From: Promethearchaeota archaeon
GTDB taxonomy: Archaea; Asgardarchaeota; Lokiarchaeia; Sigyniarchaeales; SOKP01
Length of the DNA stretch: 64,000 bases
Direction: 5' to 3'
Assembly (NCBI GenBank): GCA_030599585.1
Contig: JAUVNS010000001.1
Coordinates: 96,001-160,000 of the forward strand
Shown: positions 53,537-64,000 of the stretch, one piece after another
Position numbering within the stretch: position 1 is the stretch's first letter
How the letters are laid out: each line of letters starts with the position of its first letter
The notes under the pieces: model-generated
Databases searched by the model: none
What the model was told of the DNA's origin: nothing
The model's input: the letters and a program-made list of their open reading frames with translations, nothing else
Position numbers and translations under genes: made by a program

Positions 53537-54241
53537 ATGAATAAATCTAAATTAACAAACAATATTTTTCTGTTCATTATATTTTCACTATTCTTTTCAA
53601 ATATCGTCGCAATTGGCTATTCTAACGAAGTAGGAATAACAGATGGTATGTATATTAAACATTTTCTTACTCAACATTCACATCTGGATGGGTGGCCAAC
53701 AACACTCACTTTTTCTAAGACTTCAGATGATCTCTTTCATGTTACCTGGAGATGGGAATCTCCTAGCGATATGGGTAGTGGTCATTGGGATGTAACTATC
53801 AGCACTAATATTGTATCAAATATGGATAATTTTGGTCCTCCTGATGATTCTCATAATGGGTGTTGGATTTACATTAATGCTTCCCTTAATGATCAAATTA
53901 TAATGTATAATCACCCTAAGGAATCATATACTGGAGATGGAGACACTGTATATAATATTACTGGTGAATACAGTATTACTGGTGGCACGATGGATGTTTC
54001 TATGGAGGTTTGGGAATTAGAAGATGCTTTTGGGAGTGTGCTTTGGTATGAAAAAAGTAAAGGATTTCTTGTAAATGGCACAAATCGCTATAATGCATAT
54101 TGGGAGAAATATGAATTTATTGAGACTAATGCCTTCAGTAGTCCAGAAGGGGGGATTCCAGGATATAATTACTTTTTTCTATTTGGTTTGTTATTAGTAA
54201 GTGCAATAGTTATATTAAAAAATAAATCAATTAGGGAATAA
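53537..54241 (+). CDS. secreted/surface protein with IPGY-type (Loki-CTERM-like) C-terminal anchor
   Basis: Signal peptide; LWYEKSKGFLV; GGIPGY + TM + basic tail. Confidence 0.8.
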   Translation: MNKSKLTNNIFLFIIFSLFFSNIVAIGYSNEVGITDGMYIKHFLTQHSHLDGWPTTLTFSKTSDDLFHVTWRWESPSDMGSGHWDVTISTNIVSNMDNFGPPDDSHNGCWIYINASLNDQIIMYNHPKESYTGDGDTVYNITGEYSITGGTMDVSMEVWELEDAFGSVLWYEKSKGFLVNGTNRYNAYWEKYEFIETNAFSSPEGGIPGYNYFFLFGLLLVSAIVILKNKSIRE

Positions 54242-54321
54242 AATTATAATATAAACCTCAAAATAGCAATTCGCATGTCAAAAGTAGAAGAAAGACCACG
54301 CTATAAATAGTTTTTTTGTTT

Positions 54322-54498
54322 TTAATTTTTTATCACTTCTTTGATTTTTGTCGATGATTTAACGCTTGATTTCGTTTTTTTCACTTTAATTTCAACAAAA
54401 GCAGTGACAGGGATTAAAATTCCAATTGGAATTATTAATGTCATTATGATTACGAATGTATTAGCTGAATTGAGATCGGTATCACCTTGATTATTTGT
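54322..54498 (-). pseudogene. orphan 3' end of a surface-protein gene (TM anchor + basic tail)
   Basis: TNNQGDTDLNSANTFVIIMTLIIPIGILIPVTAFVEIKVKKTK...KN*, preceded in frame by a stop. Confidence 0.5.
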
Positions 54499-54635
54499 CT
54501 ATATGTATGTTTATAATTCTTTCTCATTTGAAAGGGGTGAATATTACAAATAGAAAAAAAAGATGAAAAGAAAGATAATAACCCTTTATTTGTTTAATCC
54601 CTAAATTTTAAGTAGTAGGCGGTTAAAGAAGAAAG

Positions 54636-55976
54636 TTAATTTATTTGATAGAAATGTTCTTCAAATTCAGGCTTGCCCTGATACTTCTGCATGAAGATCA
54701 ACGGGGCCTTTTCGATGTTCTTAAAAATATACGAGGGTGCTCTGATTCCTGCTTGCCTTAGAGCGTCTTGTATTTGATTAACTTCAGGTGGGCATCCTTC
54801 AATTGCGATCGCTTCTTTAATATTTGGATGGTCCTTGCGCTTATTGATGATGCATTGTCCAAGCAATATTGTTTTATTCTTCCCCTCAGAAGGTTCCATG
54901 ATTTTTCCAGTAAGTACTTCTACATTGTCAAAATCTTTACCCTTCCACGCTGATTTAATTGCTATAAGTAAAACTGCATTATAAAAACTACAATAAGTAC
55001 ATATAGTTTCATCATATTTTGGATAACTTAGCCCTCCAATACCCGCTTTTGCGTAAGTAAGAGGTAACGTATTATTATTTTTGTAGATATAATCCCATCC
55101 ATGAAGCACTGCAAGATCTTCTATGCTTTCTCCTTTGACATCAATATCTGATAAATCTAATGGACGATTTCTGTCCTTAGCTGCTTGTACTAAATGTGGA
55201 ACAGCAGTAGGAGATATGCCTAATAAACTAGAACCCACCATATCCGCGGAGAGCATGTTTTTGGAAGCAACTATTATATCGCTTCTATGAGCTTTACCGT
55301 CAAAAGATGGACCTCGTTCAAGTGTATAAATCCCATCAATGATTGTAAGACCAAGCGGTGCTTTATCTGCAAGGTGTGACACATTATAATGTAAGGTGTA
55401 TTTGGGATCGTCCCCATGGAACTTTTTACGCGAGGGAATATTTATCAAGCCTTTCAGATTTTTTAACCCTAAACTAACAACGCATTGCGCGTGAGTTTTA
55501 AGAACAGGAACATCAATTAAAAAATCTGAATGAAGCATATCTGCATTCATTTTTGCGGATACCCCTTCTGCTAACTCTACTTTTTCAAATGGTCGTTGAA
55601 AAATATCGTATACTTTTACACCATATCGTTTCTTAAGAATATTGTATCCAAGCTTTTCGAATGCATCTTTAGATGTTTCTCTATCTTTTGGGCTTTCAGT
55701 GACTATTCCTTCTCCGATAGTAATGTCAGTTACACCATGCTCTTTTAACAATATTAAAATTTCCTCCATTACGCTCGAAGTTGTAAGCATACCCCATTTA
55801 GGAAAGTCACAATGCCTATTCCAATAAACCAAATTAGGTTTTATGAAAACCTTTGCGTTAGGATCAAGTTTTTCAAATCCATTTACAAGTTTGACAGCTT
55901 TACGAACAGAATCTTTTTCCTTTTCATATTTTACTATAGATACACTCGATTTACTCATATATAAACATCTTTTCAT
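54636..55976 (-). CDS. DUF362 domain protein
   Basis: VFIKPNL, IGEG, VPVLKTH, SLGLKNLKG, IIDGI; C-term CTYC, GQC, GCPP. Confidence 0.9.
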   Translation of the reverse strand: MKRCLYMSKSSVSIVKYEKEKDSVRKAVKLVNGFEKLDPNAKVFIKPNLVYWNRHCDFPKWGMLTTSSVMEEILILLKEHGVTDITIGEGIVTESPKDRETSKDAFEKLGYNILKKRYGVKVYDIFQRPFEKVELAEGVSAKMNADMLHSDFLIDVPVLKTHAQCVVSLGLKNLKGLINIPSRKKFHGDDPKYTLHYNVSHLADKAPLGLTIIDGIYTLERGPSFDGKAHRSDIIVASKNMLSADMVGSSLLGISPTAVPHLVQAAKDRNRPLDLSDIDVKGESIEDLAVLHGWDYIYKNNNTLPLTYAKAGIGGLSYPKYDETICTYCSFYNAVLLIAIKSAWKGKDFDNVEVLTGKIMEPSEGKNKTILLGQCIINKRKDHPNIKEAIAIEGCPPEVNQIQDALRQAGIRAPSYIFKNIEKAPLIFMQKYQGKPEFEEHFYQIN

Positions 55977-56042
55977 TAATTAAAAATTATTAGGAAAATG
56001 AATATTAACTATTTTAAAAATTAAATTGTTTTAGAAATAATT

Positions 56043-56588
56043 TTATTCTTTTGCTTTGTTTTCCCAGTCTTCTCTTAGGATTGCCATTATTATTTCGTCG
56101 TGATACTTACCGTTGTGATACCACGCTTGCCTTTTCCTACCTTCTTCAACAAATTCTACTTTTCGGTATGTTTTAAAAGCGCGAGTATTAAATTCGTAGA
56201 CACTCAATTCGATCCTATTCATATTTAATGTGTTAAAACCATATTCTACCAACATTTCCATCGCTTCTGTTCCAAATCCTTTGTTATGATATACTTTCTC
56301 TCCAATAGTAATACCGCACGAACACGCTCTATTTTTGTTGTTTATATCTTGAATCGCGCAATTTCCAATTATTTTATCCTGATCTTCTTCATCAATTATC
56401 TGAATAGAAAAATATACAGAATCTTCTCTAGTTTTAAGATTACTGAACCATTCTTCTTCCCAGTCTCTCGTCATTGGTTTATATATCGTTAAATATTGCG
56501 TAATTTCTGGATCGTTAAACCACTTTAGAAAATGATCTATGTGTTTCCTTTCAAGGGGAGCTAACTTAATTCTCTTTCCTTTTAACAT
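56043..56588 (-). CDS. RimJ/RimL GNAT acetyltransferase
   Basis: WFNDPEI, GKGFGTEA-like NKGFGTEA, LNMNRIEL, EEGRKR. Confidence 0.9.
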   Translation of the reverse strand: MLKGKRIKLAPLERKHIDHFLKWFNDPEITQYLTIYKPMTRDWEEEWFSNLKTREDSVYFSIQIIDEEDQDKIIGNCAIQDINNKNRACSCGITIGEKVYHNKGFGTEAMEMLVEYGFNTLNMNRIELSVYEFNTRAFKTYRKVEFVEEGRKRQAWYHNGKYHDEIIMAILREDWENKAKE

Positions 56589-56659
56589 AAAAACTAGGAT
56601 TACAGCAAAAATTAAAAAATTAACGATTTAAGAATGATTTACTGAAGAAAAAGATAAAA

Positions 56660-59524
56660 TTAGAAATAAATATCTGATCTTCTTGCCATGTATTTGACGA
56701 ATTCAAAGGAAACTATACAGATCAACGAAATCAAAAAGCACACTAACCAATCTAATCCCGTAAGGAACATAAATCTAAAGTTTAAGCCCCAATCAGCTAG
56801 TGTTACTTGGACTCCTGGAATATATATGAGAGCTATAAGTAGTGCAAATAAAAAACCAATTAGAGCATACATGAAACGCGTACTGTCTTCTTTTATGCTT
56901 AGAATTAACGATTTGTTTGGTCTACGAATTTGTAAAACTAAAAATGATTCGCAGAAGAAAATCGTCACCATTAACATTGTAAGGGTTTTAGCTTCATTTA
57001 GAGAAATTCCACTTCCATCTGGGAATGTGAGGGGAGAAAACAAATAAGCTTCGTTTAAATCTCCGAAATCGATAACAGAAACTTCAGGACCTAAAAGTGT
57101 CATGAAGTAGACAACGATCATGCTAGTCGCTAATAACGCTCCAAATATAAACATAAGAATAACAGTATTTTTCGATAAGATTTCTTCCTCGTCGTGTGGT
57201 TTCTGCTTCATTAAATCTTTAGAATTACGATCGAAAGTAAGAATTAAGCCCGGAAATATGTGAACCGTTATTGAGAGGAAAATCCATTGGTAATAGAATG
57301 CGTCGTCTAAAAAGTAGGGGAAATCTAAAATAACAGATAAAATAAATTGAAAAATGCCTTCAAAAACATTTATACAGATATAGAAAAATACCACTGCTCT
57401 GATGCGAGCAAAAATACCACGTCCTTGTTCGATGCCCGTAACAATTGATGTAAAAGAATCGTCGCTTATTACCATATCACTAGCTTCTTTCGCAACATCA
57501 GTTCCTTGAATACCCATAGCTATTCCTGCATCTGCTAAATTTAAAGCTAGGGCATCGTTAACTCCATCACCGGTCATTGCTACAACCTGATTAGCTTCCT
57601 GGTACCTTTCGATTATGTCTTGTTTATGCTCTGGAGATACTCGAGCAAACACTTTAATTCTGCTAAAATCAAAAAAGGATTTAATTTTCTTTATGTTTTT
57701 ACCTTCTAATACAATTTCTTCTTTGTTTTTAATAATAGATATTTGTCGGGCGATAGCCTGTGCCGTGGTGGGAGAATCTCCAGTGATCATTACTACCTCC
57801 ACCCCTGCGTTGTGACATTGCTCAACGCTTTCTTTTACGCCTTCCCGGGGAGGATCTAGGATCGTTACAAACCCAATGTATATCATATCTGACTCGCACA
57901 ACTTTCTACTTTTCTCGTCTTCTGGTGGAAGAGCATCTAGTTTCTTATAGCATAAACTTAAAATTCTATATCCTTGTTCTGCGTAGAAATCAGAAATCTT
58001 TAAAACCTTGTCTTTTATTTCGTCTGTAAATTCTAACTCTTGGTCTTTGTATAAGACTTTTTGACAAAGTGGAATCAAAATTTCGCTTGCTCCTTTAGTA
58101 AATGAAAAGAATTTACCCTTTTTTTTATAAACTTTAGTCATTCTTTTAACTTTTGAATCAAAAGGATGCTCTTTAATGTACTCAAAATCTTCTAAGAGAT
58201 AATCTCCCATTCCTTTTTGAAAAAGAACCATCAAAGCTCCCTCAGTTGGAGAACCAATTACTTTCCAGTTATTAATTATTTTACCAGATATTTCAATCTC
58301 ATTTTTTACCAAAGCTGAGTTATTGTTCAAAAATCCTGAAGTTAAAAGTAGCTTGAGTTGAGGATGATCATCAATGTGTTTCACAAAAACAGAATTTTTC
58401 GGATCGTCGACTAGTATAATGTCCCCATCAGGACTATAACCGCTACCAGAGACGTTATATGTAGAACCATTTGTCCAGACATGTTGAATTGACATTTGAT
58501 TTCTTGTTAATGTGCCAGTTTTGTCCGAACAGACTACGCTTACTCGACCTAAACTATCTACTGAGGCGAGATTTCTGATGATAACCCCATGGCGTGCCAT
58601 AGCTACAACGCCCGTTAATAAAATAATTGTTACAAGGAGAGGTATGTTGATAGGAAGGAGATCCATGGCAGAATTAAGACTCTTGACTATATCTAACTCA
58701 CCTGTAGCGCCCCAAAGAATCATGAGAATAATAAACCAAAATCCGATAACGATTAACCCTAACCACTTTCCAAAATTATTCATTTTTTCTCGAATTGGAA
58801 TCTCACTTGTTCCTGCGTCTTCTAAACCTTGAGAAATTTTTCCTATTTCGGTATCCCTTCCAGTTTTTGCTGCTATTGCTGTTGAATTACCAGTAGCGAT
58901 AAAAGTTCCGTAAAACACCATATTGAATCGTTCAGCGATGGCCACATCTTCGTTTTTTATTACGGTACCATCATGAACTTTTCTGACAGGTTCAGATTCT
59001 CCCGTTAAACTGGATTCGTTAACTTCTAAGTTTGAGGATTGAATTATTCTTCCATCAGCAGGTATTCGATCACCTTGCTTCAAGACTAATAAATCGCCCA
59101 CAACTACATTTTTGGTGTTAATATCCTCCTTTTGACCATTTCTTATTACAGTGGTTGTGGGTGCCGTCATTTCTCGTAGTGCGCTTAATTTTTTTGTTGC
59201 TCTATATTGCTGTATGATTGCAACTATACAATTGAGCGCTACTATGCCTAGAGTTAGCATGACGAATATTAAATTTCCTTCACCCATTGTGATTGCTGCT
59301 AAAAACAGAATCAACGAGGCGAAAAGATAAATAACTATTAACCAATTAAATAAAGGAGCGAGATAAATTTTGATAAATCCTTTAGAAGCTTTCGGAATCT
59401 CGTTAAATCCGTAAAGTTCAAGCCGTTTTTGCGCTTCTTCACTTGTTAATCCATCAGTTGAGTTAGTTTGAAATTTTTTGTAGATTTGATCTAACTCCAT
59501 ATTGTAGTAGATTTCTTCCACCAT
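56660..59524 (-). CDS. P-type ATPase, P2-like scaffold with atypical TM ion-binding residues
   Basis: TGES, DKTGT, KGA, DPPR, TGD, GDGVND; TM4 PINIP. Confidence 0.95.
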   Translation of the reverse strand: MVEEIYYNMELDQIYKKFQTNSTDGLTSEEAQKRLELYGFNEIPKASKGFIKIYLAPLFNWLIVIYLFASLILFLAAITMGEGNLIFVMLTLGIVALNCIVAIIQQYRATKKLSALREMTAPTTTVIRNGQKEDINTKNVVVGDLLVLKQGDRIPADGRIIQSSNLEVNESSLTGESEPVRKVHDGTVIKNEDVAIAERFNMVFYGTFIATGNSTAIAAKTGRDTEIGKISQGLEDAGTSEIPIREKMNNFGKWLGLIVIGFWFIILMILWGATGELDIVKSLNSAMDLLPINIPLLVTIILLTGVVAMARHGVIIRNLASVDSLGRVSVVCSDKTGTLTRNQMSIQHVWTNGSTYNVSGSGYSPDGDIILVDDPKNSVFVKHIDDHPQLKLLLTSGFLNNNSALVKNEIEISGKIINNWKVIGSPTEGALMVLFQKGMGDYLLEDFEYIKEHPFDSKVKRMTKVYKKKGKFFSFTKGASEILIPLCQKVLYKDQELEFTDEIKDKVLKISDFYAEQGYRILSLCYKKLDALPPEDEKSRKLCESDMIYIGFVTILDPPREGVKESVEQCHNAGVEVVMITGDSPTTAQAIARQISIIKNKEEIVLEGKNIKKIKSFFDFSRIKVFARVSPEHKQDIIERYQEANQVVAMTGDGVNDALALNLADAGIAMGIQGTDVAKEASDMVISDDSFTSIVTGIEQGRGIFARIRAVVFFYICINVFEGIFQFILSVILDFPYFLDDAFYYQWIFLSITVHIFPGLILTFDRNSKDLMKQKPHDEEEILSKNTVILMFIFGALLATSMIVVYFMTLLGPEVSVIDFGDLNEAYLFSPLTFPDGSGISLNEAKTLTMLMVTIFFCESFLVLQIRRPNKSLILSIKEDSTRFMYALIGFLFALLIALIYIPGVQVTLADWGLNFRFMFLTGLDWLVCFLISLICIVSFEFVKYMARRSDIYF

Positions 59525-59854
59525 TAGCCATTCTCCCGGGACTTATATCTTAATTTTGATTTTATGATAAAAAATAATTTATAATAAATACACAATAGAA
59601 ATTCTTGTTTTTATTCTATAGTATTTTTGTTAATAAAAATAGTTATTAAAGATACTTTAAAAAAATAATAGAAAAGATTCAAAAATACGAATTAGGATGG
59701 AAAATAAGATCGAATTATTTGATTGGACTTTCTTTTTTGTCTTTCTTTTTCAGACCATAAAATAATTTATCAAGATGTATTTTTATTTTATAGTATTTTT
59801 ATTTATTAAAATGAGCTAGTAACAATAAAATTAGTATTCAAGCTAATAATGGTA

Positions 59855-60394
59855 TTATTTCCATTTTTCATTTAAATCCTTTCTAGTTAAATTCCCTACT
59901 TGTTCTACAGCATAACGAACAAAATTACAGCATTTTTTTTCCCACACATTATTTTTCACATACTCTCTTATATTTAGACTTGTATTAACACCACAGATTT
60001 CTTCACAACTTAACGAACCAAATTGATTTTCAAATTTAGTAGCAAATCTTACTGCTTTTGCATAGATTTTTGGAACTTCGCTAGACTTAGCTTTTTCTTG
60101 ACCTCCCATAATGATACCCATCGCAGCTATACCTCCACCTACTGCACCACACGCGCCTTTCCAATTATTCTTACTAGTATAAGAAGCAAGACCACTAAAA
60201 GGAATCGCGAGATTATTGAAATAGTAACTTTTTAAAACATCACTTTCAAGCACATCTAATATACTCGTAAAGGTTAATGCTGCACAACTATTTCCTGGAT
60301 CTTTCCCTAAAGGGACGAGAGTCTCCTTTAACTCCTCTACTTTTTCTTTAAATTTAGTGCGATAATCTGTTTGTTTAATATTTGTCTCGTTCAT
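59855..60394 (-). CDS. C-GCAxxG-C-C family putative redox protein
   Basis: NSCAA, ACGAVGG, FGSLSCEEICG, KKCC. Confidence 0.85.
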   Translation of the reverse strand: MNETNIKQTDYRTKFKEKVEELKETLVPLGKDPGNSCAALTFTSILDVLESDVLKSYYFNNLAIPFSGLASYTSKNNWKGACGAVGGGIAAMGIIMGGQEKAKSSEVPKIYAKAVRFATKFENQFGSLSCEEICGVNTSLNIREYVKNNVWEKKCCNFVRYAVEQVGNLTRKDLNEKWK

Positions 60395-60448
60395 AATTAA
60401 GAAATTTATGAGTTTTAATTTATAAAGTTTACCCCTAATTTAAATAAA

Positions 60449-63316
60449 TTAGAAAACAATTTTCTTAGCTCTAGCGAAATACTTGAAAATTTCGATCCCA
60501 ATTATACCTGGCAGCGCGAGTAAAATACACATAATCCAATCAGTTCCACTCAAAAAGAGAAAGTTGATTTGTAGATCTAAACCGAATTCATCGTTTATAT
60601 AAAAATTAACGGCATTTGAAAATAACACGAATAAGACGTGTAAAGCGAGAGTAAATAAGCTTATTACGAGTAAAGTTAGCGAAAATTCGCTTTTAAGGCT
60701 TTTGAAAAGTGATTTGTTAGGCCGTCTGAACGTCCAGATGAATGTAGTTTCAACAATGTAGATCGTAGTGATAAACATAGTTCTTGCTTTTTGTGCTAAC
60801 AATTCGGGTTGCGTTGATCCAACAGGTATATAACTAATAGAAGAATTAAGATTCCATTCATTTAACGGAATTGCACCTCCTAATGTAAGTTGAAGAACTA
60901 ATACCAAACCGATTCCCATCAATAACGCTTGTATCACCAACATAATCCACATATTCTTGTTTAATAGTTGTTCCTCGTCTCTGGGATGTTCTTTCATCAC
61001 ATCTGTTGGATGTTTATCTATCACTAGAGCTAAAGCAGGTAAAGAATGAACGATTGCGTAGATGTAAATGTGTTGCCACTCTGAGCTAAACAATTCAAAT
61101 AATGGGACAAACTCATACGCAAAAAAAATAACGGATTCCATTAGATTTAAGCAGATAAAAAAGAATATTATGGTTCGAATTCTCGCAAATAATCCACGAC
61201 CAATTTTTACACCCCTAACTATGGATGTGAAGTTATCGTCGCTAACAACCATATCAGCAGTTTCTTTAGCAACATCAGTACCCATAATACCCATAGCTAT
61301 ACCTGCATTCGCTAGTTTTAAAGCTAGAGCGTCGTTAATACCATCCCCCGTCATCGCACAGATGTGATTCGCTGACTGATACTTTTCTATAATTATCTCT
61401 TTATCTGAAGGATTGACTCGTGCAAATACAGACACTTTATTGAAATTTTTATCGTTTAAATCGTTAATTTCTGAACCTTCTACGACTAAATCCCCTTCCT
61501 TGTAAATTCTCATTTGAGCTGCAATAGTTTTGGCAGTAGCTGGATGATCGCCTGTGATCATTGAAATCTTGATACCGGCTGATTCACATTCCTCTACTGA
61601 TGCTTTCACTCCCGGTTTAGGAGGGTCTAATATTGAAACAAAACCTAAGAAGACGAGATCATTTTCAACTTTTTGTCTTTTAAAATCTTGTTCATCCTCG
61701 ATTTTCCGATATCCAATAGCCAAGGTTCGATATCCTTGGTTCGCACGAGTTTGAATGTTCTCGATTAAGAGTTTTTTTGATTTTTCAGTTAATGTTTCTT
61801 CTACACCATTTATTTCAATTTTGTTTGTTATATCTAAGATCCTCTCCGGTGCTCCTTTCGAGAATGCTATAGTCTTAGTATCATCTGTATTAAGTTTACA
61901 CACAGTTGTCATCCGCTTAACTTCAGAATTAAACGAAAACTCCTTCAATATTGCGTATTTATTTTTCACATCATAAGGAATGTATCCCGCCTTTTCAGCT
62001 AACACTAATAAAGAAGCTTCTGTTGGCGAACCTAACGCTTTTCTTACGGCTATTTCCTTTGATTCTCTTAATTGAACTTTAACATCTTCATATACTAATT
62101 TAGCGTTATTATTTAAGACGCTTGAATCAATGAATTTGGTAAATGTAGGATTTTCCTTGAAGCTTATTTCCTTTCCATTTTCAAGAATAATTCCTTCAGG
62201 ATCATATCCTGAGCCAGTAACTTGGTATTCGTTGTTGTTTATCCATAATCTTTCAACGGTCATCTCGTTTTTAGTAATGGTTCCCGTCTTATCTGAACAA
62301 ATTACCGATACGCGCCCAAGAGATTCAATTGCTGACAAATTTTTTATAATTACTCCACTTTGAGCCATATTAAGTACCCCTGTAACGAGAACGAGAGTTG
62401 TCAATAAAGGTAGGTTAATAGGCATAATTCCCATTGATCTTAGAATAGAAGATATAATTGCATCTCTTATATTATCACCAAAAAATAGACCTTCTAACCC
62501 TAAAATGGAAAATTTATACACAATTAAGACGATTAGGTAAATGATAACTATCGTTCCAAGGATATACCCTAACCTATTTAGTTTTCTTGTTAGCGGAATG
62601 TCTTCGATACTTCCCATATCATTAAGTTGATTTGAAATTTTACCAATCTCAGTATTAAGGCCAGTTCCAGCGATAAGTGCTTTTCCTCTACCAGTATTTA
62701 TGTAAGTCCCCATGAACACCATATTGCTTTGTTTCTGAATGGGTAATTCTCTATCTTTTAGTGTCTTATTGTTTTTCTCTACCGGCTCGCTCTCCCCGGT
62801 GAGTGGAGCCTCGTCAACAGTTAAATTGGTTGACTCAATAATTCTCGCATCTGCACCGATTTTATCTCCTTGTTCTAATAAAATAATATCCCCTGGAACT
62901 AGTTCTTTGGTAGGAATCTCAAATTGAATTCCGTCTCGTAAAACAACCGTTTTTAAAGCGGCAATTTGCCTTAAAGCGTCTAATGCTTTTCGAGCTCTAT
63001 ATTGTTGAGTTATTACGGTTATTGAATTAATAACTACAACTGTAAAAGTAATGATTGTTGATGTTAGATCTCCGAGTATTATAACAATTACTGCTGAAAT
63101 AATCAGTATTATTATTAAAAAATTGAAAATTGGTGCTAAATAGATTTTCCAAAGAGATGCTTTAATTTTTGGTAATTCATTAAAGCCATATTTGATGTAT
63201 TTTTCCTCTATTTCAGAAGTTTTTAAACCATTGTTAGAATCTGTTTGAAATTTTGAAATTAAAGCATCAATTGGCTGGAAATATGGTTTATCAGAACGAA
63301 TTAGGGTTTGATTCAT
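60449..63316 (-). CDS. P-type ATPase paralog, atypical TM residues
   Basis: TGES, DKTGT, KGAPE, DPPK, TGD, GDGIND; TM4 PINLP. Confidence 0.95.
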   Translation of the reverse strand: MNQTLIRSDKPYFQPIDALISKFQTDSNNGLKTSEIEEKYIKYGFNELPKIKASLWKIYLAPIFNFLIIILIISAVIVIILGDLTSTIITFTVVVINSITVITQQYRARKALDALRQIAALKTVVLRDGIQFEIPTKELVPGDIILLEQGDKIGADARIIESTNLTVDEAPLTGESEPVEKNNKTLKDRELPIQKQSNMVFMGTYINTGRGKALIAGTGLNTEIGKISNQLNDMGSIEDIPLTRKLNRLGYILGTIVIIYLIVLIVYKFSILGLEGLFFGDNIRDAIISSILRSMGIMPINLPLLTTLVLVTGVLNMAQSGVIIKNLSAIESLGRVSVICSDKTGTITKNEMTVERLWINNNEYQVTGSGYDPEGIILENGKEISFKENPTFTKFIDSSVLNNNAKLVYEDVKVQLRESKEIAVRKALGSPTEASLLVLAEKAGYIPYDVKNKYAILKEFSFNSEVKRMTTVCKLNTDDTKTIAFSKGAPERILDITNKIEINGVEETLTEKSKKLLIENIQTRANQGYRTLAIGYRKIEDEQDFKRQKVENDLVFLGFVSILDPPKPGVKASVEECESAGIKISMITGDHPATAKTIAAQMRIYKEGDLVVEGSEINDLNDKNFNKVSVFARVNPSDKEIIIEKYQSANHICAMTGDGINDALALKLANAGIAMGIMGTDVAKETADMVVSDDNFTSIVRGVKIGRGLFARIRTIIFFFICLNLMESVIFFAYEFVPLFELFSSEWQHIYIYAIVHSLPALALVIDKHPTDVMKEHPRDEEQLLNKNMWIMLVIQALLMGIGLVLVLQLTLGGAIPLNEWNLNSSISYIPVGSTQPELLAQKARTMFITTIYIVETTFIWTFRRPNKSLFKSLKSEFSLTLLVISLFTLALHVLFVLFSNAVNFYINDEFGLDLQINFLFLSGTDWIMCILLALPGIIGIEIFKYFARAKKIVF

Positions 63317-63421
63317 CTCAGTATCATTCTCAATTTACGAATGTATCAAAATTTAATAAATATTGATTTAAACATTTTTAATTATATAATTTTTTCTCTA
63401 AAACAAAGTTAACTGTTATAA

Positions 63422-64000
63422 TTAGAGATTAAATTCGGATGGATCTCCTAATATATCAATTAATATGTGATATTTTTTCCTAATTGTTGTACTCGAAAAT
63501 CTGCTTGTTTGTTCAACAATACTTTGAGTAAAAATCTTGCGATTATCTAAAGATTGTCCAATGTAATAGATTAATCCTGCGGTAAAAGCCTTGTAGTTCA
63601 TGTTTAGGATTTGCTCGTAATTAATTTTCAGTAAAATTTTAGCTGCAATTAATTGCAATTCCAACTTTAATTTGGTGTAATCTGACTCGCTGGAGAAGTG
63701 TTGTTTGACGTGTTCAAAATTGATATTGTTTAAATCCTTTTGAAATAAAATTTTAATTTTATTCTTTATATCTTCTTCTAGATTTTCTGCGTTTTTATAT
63801 CCTTTCAGCCTTTTCTCCGTTCTTTTGACTTTGAGCATTGCATTTGCGAGCATCTTTTTGTTTATCTTGTGCCCTAACTCCTTAGATGCTTTGATGAAAT
63901 CTTCAATCCTCACATTTGTAGTTTCTTTTATTTCCATCCAAATGATTGCCAGAAAGATGATTACCATATTTTCATAAGTCTGTCTATGATATTTGTTATA
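63422..64000 (-). CDS. TFB/TFIIB-like cyclin-fold protein, 5' end outside the window
   Basis: AGLIYY...FTQSIVEQTSRFSSTTIRKKY resembles the TFB second cyclin repeat; frame open to 64000. Confidence 0.6.
   Translation of the reverse strand, partial: YNKYHRQTYENMVIIFLAIIWMEIKETTNVRIEDFIKASKELGHKINKKMLANAMLKVKRTEKRLKGYKNAENLEEDIKNKIKILFQKDLNNINFEHVKQHFSSESDYTKLKLELQLIAAKILLKINYEQILNMNYKAFTAGLIYYIGQSLDNRKIFTQSIVEQTSRFSSTTIRKKYHILIDILGDPSEFNL

Follow-up and report, generated by a model that had tools for sequence, protein, structure and literature searches.

A tandem pair of P-type ATPases from a Promethearchaeota archaeon belongs to a distinct P2-type subfamily and probably does not pump calcium

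We analyzed two neighboring P-type ATPase genes from a Promethearchaeota archaeon (GenBank assembly GCA_030599585.1). The genes, P0001 and P0002, are two long minus-strand open reading frames (ORFs) in a 64,000-nucleotide stretch of contig JAUVNS010000001.1 (positions 96,001 to 160,000, forward strand), referred to here as the window. GC content of the window is low (~32%). We found that, by sequence, the pair is a distinct P2-type subfamily, a variant of the calcium-pump class, and that the two proteins are probably not calcium pumps and move some other small ion instead. The locus had been described before in a reading made from the sequence alone (the sequence-only reading), which called the pair flippase-like and its substrate unknown. 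The coordinates of the features discussed here are collected in Table 1.

The two proteins are 42% identical over their full length and appear complete. Five P-type domains scored over the Pfam cut-off in both: E1-E2_ATPase, Hydrolase, Cation_ATPase, Cation_ATPase_N (PF00690), and Cation_ATPase_C (PF00689). Both have the full set of catalytic motifs (TGES, DKTGT, KGA in the forms KGASE/KGAPE, DPPR/DPPK, TGD, and GDGxND). Translation confirmed the intact catalytic core that the sequence-only reading had reported, its coordinates for the TM4 motifs PINIP and PINLP, and its strings for transmembrane helices (TM) 5, 6, and 8. Ratios of nonsynonymous to synonymous substitution (dN/dS) measured against same-genus orthologues were 0.09 for P0001 and 0.08 for P0002. 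Both genes are real, conserved, and under purifying selection.

The ion-binding region of the pair differs from that of Ca2+ pumps. At the positions of SERCA residues E309, N796, and D800, P0001 has Ile, Ser, and His, and P0002 has Ile, Tyr, and His. In an alignment of P0001 with LMCA1 of Listeria, the gating Glu is matched by I292 and the TM6 Asp by H755. The N..E of TM5 and the Glu of TM8 are retained, as had been noted earlier (N719, E722, and E859 in P0001, and their equivalents in P0002).

Table 1. Features of the P0001-P0002 locus, in positions of the window.
Feature	Position	Strand	Basis or remark
P0001, 954 aa; His-TM6 Asgard subfamily, main orthologue line	56660..59524	-	ORF, translation, Pfam
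P0002, 955 aa; paralogue from another subclade of the same family	60449..63316	-	ORF, translation, Pfam, tree
TM4 PINIP of P0001; I292 and N293 at the SERCA E309 and G310 positions	58640..58654	-	unwound part of TM4
TM4 PINLP of P0002	62408..62422	-	motif translation
TM6 of P0001, QWIFLSITVHIFPG; H755 at the SERCA D800 position	57248..57289	-	alignment
TM6 of P0002, QHIYIYAIVHSLPA; His at the D800 position	61034..61075	-	alignment
TM5 INVFE of P0001; N719/E722 at SERCA N768/E771	57359..57373	-	alignment
TM5 LNLME of P0002	61136..61150	-	alignment
TM8 FFCESF of P0001; E859 at SERCA E908	56942..56959	-	alignment
TM8 YIVETT of P0002	60743..60760	-	alignment
DKTGT phosphorylation motif of P0001, D334	58511..58525	-	motif search
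DKTGT phosphorylation motif of P0002, D342	62279..62293	-	motif search
Hinge GDGVNDALAL of P0001; Leu replaces the usual Pro, a family signature	57542..57571	-	alignment
C_GCAxxG_C_C gene, 179 aa, putative redox-active, between the pumps	59855..60394	-
21-bp AT-rich box copies, AAAAATACTATA[A/G]AATAAAAA (coding strand)	59608-59628 and 59780-59800		in the window
AT-rich intergenic region upstream of P0001	59525..59854	-	proximal ~130 bp conserved with same-genus genome

We found that the altered site is shared by a large family. Homologues were sought among 1.84 billion representatives clustered at 50% identity, and the best 150 matches were used. Among these, 43 share the TM4 motif P-[IVFWLM]-N-x-[PVI], xNxxE in TM5, the TM6 His, the TM8 Glu, and the hinge GDGVNDALAL. 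The rest are ordinary pumps with PEGLP and N..TD motifs. We aligned 30 family sequences (35-54% identical to P0001) and compared them with 94 canonical relatives. P291, E722, Q746, and H755 are invariant in the 30 sequences, and conservation reaches 90% or more at N293, N719, P758, and E859. His occupies the D800 position in 31 of the 32 clade members counted as 50%-identity representatives. The pattern seen in the two genes is not due to chance, because the TM6 His, the TM4 Asn, the TM5 Glu, and the TM8 Glu are conserved across the clade. This conservation, together with the low dN/dS values, bears out the earlier proposal that the substitutions shared by the two paralogues are under selection.

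The comparison with canonical relatives identified the residues that set the family apart. At the E309 position the canonical Glu (100%) is replaced by Ile (74%) or by Phe, Val, Trp, Leu, or Met. At the G310 position Gly (92%) is replaced by Asn (93%), at the N796 position Asn (95%) by Tyr, Phe, or Val, and at the D800 position Asp (100%) by His. In TM2, the canonical Glu at position 106 (93%) is Gln in 87% of the family, and that at position 110 (89%) is mostly Gln. Gln at TM1 position 57 (90%) is replaced by Pro (87%). In TM5, Asn is present in 90% of the family and Glu in 100%. The TM8 Glu is found in 96% of the family, in contrast to 38% of canonical relatives, which have Gln in 56%. Family-specific positions relative to the 94 canonical sequences are Y54 and P57 in TM1; Q106 in TM2; N293, L296, L297, and T304 in TM4; L659 in the hinge, where canonical pumps have Pro; H755 in TM6; and R868 after TM8. 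As judged from this alignment, the conserved feature of TM4 is the Asn that replaces G310, and the E309 position is simply hydrophobic. Acidic residues are systematically neutralized both in the ion site and in the TM1/TM2 region.

A few members deviate from the pattern. Some carry PITIP, PISIP, PIMIP, PVSIP, or PWSFP in TM4 (variant carriers include L130:7020-9947, L131:6992-9961, P0137, P0149, and P0163). In P0149 the TM6 His is replaced by Gln, and P0139 and L132 have no TM8 Glu.

These data also bear on whether the proteins transport anything. Four canonical ion ligands are replaced and the hinge Pro has become Leu, as might be expected of an ATPase that is uncoupled or transports nothing, such as a sensor or regulator that has lost its cargo site. 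However, the remaining polar residues of the site are near-invariant among sequences only 35-54% identical, purifying selection is strong, and the catalytic motifs are intact. We consider loss of transport very improbable.

We placed the family by phylogeny. A FastTree analysis (134 rows, rooted with the P1B pumps of the window's own genome) gave one clade with support of 100 that contains 32 representatives and branches from within the prokaryotic PEGLP pumps. P0001 groups with P0126, and P0002 with P0140, P0138, and P0142 (clusters named Promethearchaeota and Helarchaeota). Since the two genes fall in separate subclades, they stem from an old duplication. A second tree was made with IQ-TREE (LG+C20 PMSF, P1B outgroup, SH-aLRT support). 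Its references included archaeal P3A pumps over the TIGR01647 cut-off (L142-L146), bacterial P3B pumps over TIGR01524, and two P2C-like archaeal and bacterial pumps. The family was again monophyletic (100) and lay inside P2, which was split from P3A plus P3B at 99. The P3A references formed their own clade together with P3B, and the family did not group with P3A. In this tree the sister of the family within P2 is left without resolution, and the trees hold no eukaryotic P2B, P2D, P4, or P5 sequences. Another 80 loci, collected with the generic motifs DKTGT and GDGxND, were all ordinary PEGLP pumps (0 family members) and served as named references.

Profile scores agree with this placement. The pair scored 268-301 bits on the model for the P-type superfamily (TIGR01494, cut-off 62). 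The best NCBIfam models were PMR1, SERCA, and IID at 430-470 bits, each below its cut-off. Scores for P0001 and P0002 on the P2A models were 430 and 449 bits on TIGR01116 (cut-off 703) and 469 and 445 bits on TIGR01522 (cut-off 798), and canonical Ca-type neighbors reached 633-786 bits. Scores on the P3A model TIGR01647 were 339 and 344 bits (cut-off 615). On the P4 model TIGR01652 the pair scored 107 and 120 bits and the family 89-123, much like ordinary Ca-type pumps (91-105; cut-off 431). On the P5 model TIGR01657 the pair scored 248 and 241 bits and the family 198-248 (cut-off 618). The family is thus below every curated NCBIfam cut-off for P2A/B/C/D, P3, and P4/P5. Because its P2A scores are below those of the neighbors and its P4 scores are like theirs, the family has diverged from P2A, though not towards P4. 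A profile made for the family itself separates members (at least 1018 bits) from the other pumps tested (at most 911 bits).

The predicted structure also resembles P2 pumps. The AlphaFold2 model of P0001 (mean confidence, pLDDT, of 81; predicted template modeling score, pTM, of 0.75) has ten long helices, and the TM4 helix is broken at residues 288-292, between 287 and 293, which is at the motif. The first 50 Foldseek matches were all SERCA, SPCA, Na,K-ATPases, or H,K-ATPases. Structure-based identity was 26-30% to P2 chains, 22-23% to P3A and P3B, 17-19% to P4, and 17-20% to P5. The VIA Z for the P3A pump AHA2 (5ksd) was 28.6, tied with SERCA. Matches in the ESM Atlas were limited to the cluster of the protein itself and to generic P-type clusters.

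Based on these results, the earlier suggestion of a distinct subfamily without the Ca2+ ligand set holds: the clade is monophyletic, it scores below the curated cut-offs, and its motif is family-wide. Full-text searching of the searchable literature found no description of the clade, and the branch is apparently undescribed. Public annotations call its members "Ca2+-transporting ATPase" or "cation-translocating P-type ATPase".

The same results argue against kinship with lipid flippases. The sequence-only reading had taken Ile at the E309 position as the hallmark of P4 pumps and had proposed a flippase-like protein or an intermediate between P2 and P4. The Ile is indeed present in the pair, and in P4 pumps (Drs2p, ATP8A1, Neo1), as in the family, Ile at that position is followed by a small polar residue. 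A hydrophobic residue there is not specific to P4 pumps, however, since the archaeal P3A pumps over the TIGR01647 cut-off have PVALP in TM4; within the family the position is also Val, Phe, Trp, Leu, or Met. P4 pumps have DGET, a TM5 Lys, no buried Glu, and, in P4A, a CDC50 partner. The extra Asp of DGET is P4-specific according to a review of the field (PMC10654040). In contrast, the A-domain motif is TGES in the pair, in family members from other Asgard genomes, and in most representatives; there is no TM5 Lys, and two buried Glu are kept. The PP(E/A)LP motif of P5 pumps is not present, a single Pro preceding the motif in TM4. We found no match to CDC50 (PF03381) in the window's own genome at E values up to 1, although the control genomes also gave none, so this search had no positive control.

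A transporter of lipids or organic cations, whether akin to P4 flippases or P5B polyamine pumps or converging on them, would fit the P-I-N-[IL] motif of TM4, the few members with PISIP or PITIP (near the PISL of P4), the hydrophobic site II, and a host lineage closer to eukaryotes than any other archaea. Against it are the motif differences above, the P4 and P5 scores far under their cut-offs, the low structural identity to P4 and P5 relative to P2, and the nesting of the clade among prokaryotic PEGLP pumps. We regard it as highly unlikely. The same low probability applies to a historical version of the idea, in which the clade would be a prokaryotic stem or cousin of the eukaryotic P4/P5 pumps, with an inherited P-I-[NS] TM4 and with a lipid head group or organic cation passing through the hydrophobic site II; our trees, with P2 and P3 references, hold no eukaryotic P4/P5 sequences that would place such a stem.

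We found family-grade matches in 90 of 151 sampled Asgard genomes, in 52 of the 72 that are of high quality, and in 12 of 27 GTDB families. A single copy is the rule, and the window's GTDB family typically has a tandem pair; this arrangement recurs within that family and in one other. The profile search found no member in three other phyla (0/121, 0/201, and 0/151 genomes; 473 in total). These phyla hold, respectively, a DPANN-sized archaeal metagenome-assembled genome (MAG), an Anaerolinea MAG, and a Methanobacterium MAG; Thermoproteota (TACK) were outside the sample. Where clusters have named members, these belong to Promethearchaeota, Helarchaeota, and Odinarchaeota, and one representative is labelled a Korarchaeota MAG. 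Close public homologues are also labelled Loki-, Hod-, Hermod-, Heimdall-, and Thorarchaeota, the closest being Lokiarchaeota or Promethearchaeota. One genome of the same order as the window's (G094) has five family-grade copies on separate contigs, which suggests a lineage-specific expansion.

The genes around the pair are less conserved than the pair itself. Among 20 loci from 12 Asgard families, the only conserved partner was the tandem paralogue, plus, within the window's GTDB family, an unannotated upstream gene of ~320 aa; no neighbor was conserved phylum-wide across these loci. In the window, the ORF upstream of P0002 (63422-64000, minus strand) is cut by the window end. Its version in relatives is 317-339 aa long, has no Pfam match, and is conserved beside the pump pair in the window's GTDB family only. 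The stretch downstream of P0001 (54636-55976 and 56043-56588, also minus strand) holds a GNAT acetyltransferase gene and a DUF362 gene. The GNAT gene is also 3' of the pair in the same-genus genome (L116) and is not there in more distant relatives.

The region between the pumps differs in the two genomes of the genus. L116 has no C_GCAxxG_C_C gene, its pumps are ~200 bp apart, and it has the 21-bp box once, upstream of the P0001 orthologue. In the window, the C_GCAxxG_C_C gene is followed by a second copy of the box. The insertion of this gene looks like a small event that duplicated promoter-proximal sequence. We rejected the gene as a functional partner of the pumps, since it is absent from the same-genus genome. 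P0001 probably has its own promoter, because the proximal ~130 bp of its upstream region are conserved with L116. Despite the adjacency of the two pumps, synonymous divergence from L116 was 0.57 for P0001 and 1.52 for P0002, and recombination or replacement of one copy may account for the unequal values.

Besides the pair, the genome encodes three P-type ATPases, for a total of five: two P1B pumps of the CPC type and, on contig C35, a canonical P2A pump of the Ca type that carries PEGL and N..TD. We used this inventory and the known P2A pumps to evaluate the public annotation, under which the pair would be Ca2+ (or Mg2+) pumps with a modified single site. The P2A pumps LMCA1 (PDB 6zhf/9euq), SPCA1 (8iwp/7yag), and SERCA1/2 are like the pair in domain order, ten-TM fold, N- and C-terminal cation-ATPase domains, TGES, DKTGT, KGA, the TM5 N..E, and the TM8 Glu. 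The closest characterized relatives of the pair all pump Ca2+: LMCA1 gave the best match (414 bits), followed by SPCA1 (375 bits) and SERCA (332 bits). The equivalents of N768, E771, and E908 are retained. There is also a precedent in the P6 pump CtpE of Mycobacterium, which moves Ca2+ although Ile replaces its TM6 Asp (PMC10654040).

However, the genome already has a canonical Ca-type pump, and E309, N796, and D800 are all lost in the pair; the LMCA1 alignment indicates that a known single-site pump keeps them. SPCA likewise keeps the E309/N796/D800 pattern of single-site Ca2+ pumps. The P2A pumps further differ from the family in their conserved TM2 Glu residues and hinge Pro, as well as in their profile scores. 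A Ca2+ pump with a modified site is unlikely in our judgment. Its Mg2+ version drew on the genome's own transporters, among which no CorA or CNNM was detected. CorA is present in 97 of the 151 sampled Asgard genomes, where it co-occurs with the family and does not replace it (19/25 in group f1, 22/26 in f7, and 19/19 in f12). The genome also has a split MgtE, encoded by two adjacent short ORFs (185 and 203 aa; C20:175208-176148, ~15 kb past the window end). We dropped the Mg2+ hypothesis, as CorA accompanies the family across the phylum and the split MgtE is present.

Three other P-type families show how a site can be changed. In CtpE, which takes up Ca2+ (PMC5615198, PMC10654040), the TM6 Asp is replaced as in our family, a precedent for new specificity or direction. 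P6 pumps retain PEGL in TM4, have Ile where the TM6 Asp would be, and lack the N-domain Lys (PMC10654040), whereas the family has PxNxP, His, and an intact KGA, and is set apart by the review's description of P6. P3A pumps (plant AHA2, fungal Pma1, and archaeal P3A of methanogens) share with the family a hydrophobic E309 position and, as is proposed for the family, have a single buried acid-base site, for which no counter-ion is required. They differ in using a TM6 Asp as proton acceptor together with a TM5 Arg, where the family has the TM6 His and its acids on TM5 and TM8. P1B-4 pumps of the sCoaT type have a TM6 His beside a Glu, and built-in counterions, including this His, are established in other P-type families (PMC10654040). 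These pumps have eight TM helices and SPC in TM4 and are otherwise unrelated within the superfamily; the genome's own P1B pumps served as the outgroup of our trees.

Taking these comparisons together, we tentatively favor, with somewhat less than even confidence, the notion that each protein of the pair pumps one small cation of low charge, H+ or monovalent, from a single site. The intact motifs and family membership are consistent with working P2-type ATPases that would go through the usual E1/E2 phosphoenzyme cycle, with phosphorylation on D334 (P0001) or D342 (P0002) and dephosphorylation by way of the TGES loop. The subfamily would descend from ancestors like the two-site Ca2+ pumps. Site II would have been filled in by Ile, Val, Phe, or Trp at the E309 position and by Tyr, Phe, or Val at the N796 position. 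Site I would have been remodeled: its TM5 Asn and Glu and its TM8 Glu would be joined by the new TM4 Asn and by the TM6 His, the last replacing D800, the ligand common to both sites. The His could be an ion ligand, or it could serve as a built-in counterion and pair with the glutamates in E2, by analogy with the P3A Arg and the P1B-4 His.

The cargo is suggested by charge. The putative binding site loses two acidic side chains (E309 and D800), and the TM2 Glu residues at 106 and 110 are mostly Gln, so that up to four negative charges would be lost; because of these changes we suggest a low-charge cargo. Several points weigh against this assignment. The charge argument is indirect, in that positions 106 and 110, which we take to be in the cytoplasmic entry region, are in family numbering and were set without a direct SERCA alignment. 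P6 and P3B relatives import their ions. No hint of the substrate comes from the gene neighborhood or from upstream RNA elements (an Rfam scan of 54000-64000 with E values up to 1 had no match). Finally, His, two Glu, and Asn would also make a good ligand set for Mn2+, Fe2+, Co2+, Ni2+, or Zn2+.

This last point leads to a pump for divalent transition metals, in which one ion would be held by the TM6 His, the TM5 and TM8 Glu, and the Asn residues, and exported out of the cytoplasm of anaerobes that live in sediment and encounter high Fe2+ or Mn2+. The His, two carboxylates, and two amides at invariant positions are consistent with such a pump, and the best NCBIfam model is of the PMR1/SPCA type, which pumps Ca2+ and Mn2+. 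The CPC motifs of the genome's two P1B pumps are of the Cu/Zn type, and no P1B-4-like Fe/Co pump was seen in the genome. In contrast, the change from Glu to Gln at 106 and 110 in TM2 is the opposite of what a divalent cation favors. Neither Cys nor Met is among the ligands, neither terminus carries a metal-binding domain, there is no metal regulator or riboswitch nearby, and the PMR1 score is far under its cut-off. Metal export is the leading alternative, though well short of likely. A cation of low charge, H+ or monovalent, still seems to us the better candidate for the cargo.

The family matters for how archaeal P-type pumps are classified. The field review divides P-type ATPases into families P1-P6, of which only P6 has been added since 1998, and regards prokaryotic diversity as still undescribed, with more expected (PMC10654040). 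The clade described here is large and old, is found in ~60% of sampled Asgard genomes, and is often present as a tandem pair. At present it has no bearing on the origin of eukaryotic flippases. Its rebuilt site (His, two Glu, two Asn, and a plugged site II) would be a natural experiment in ion specificity, and perhaps in counterion evolution, on a SERCA scaffold.

The family also matters for the biology of Asgard archaea. An analysis of the Asgard transportome described P2-type pumps as orthologues of the putative Ca2+-ATPase TC 3.A.3.2.21 and read them as evidence of Ca2+ signaling (PMC7997004). That study did not separate the clade from canonical Ca2+ pumps and may have counted these genes. 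If the clade does pump another ion, inferences about Ca2+ signaling in these archaea would need to be revised.

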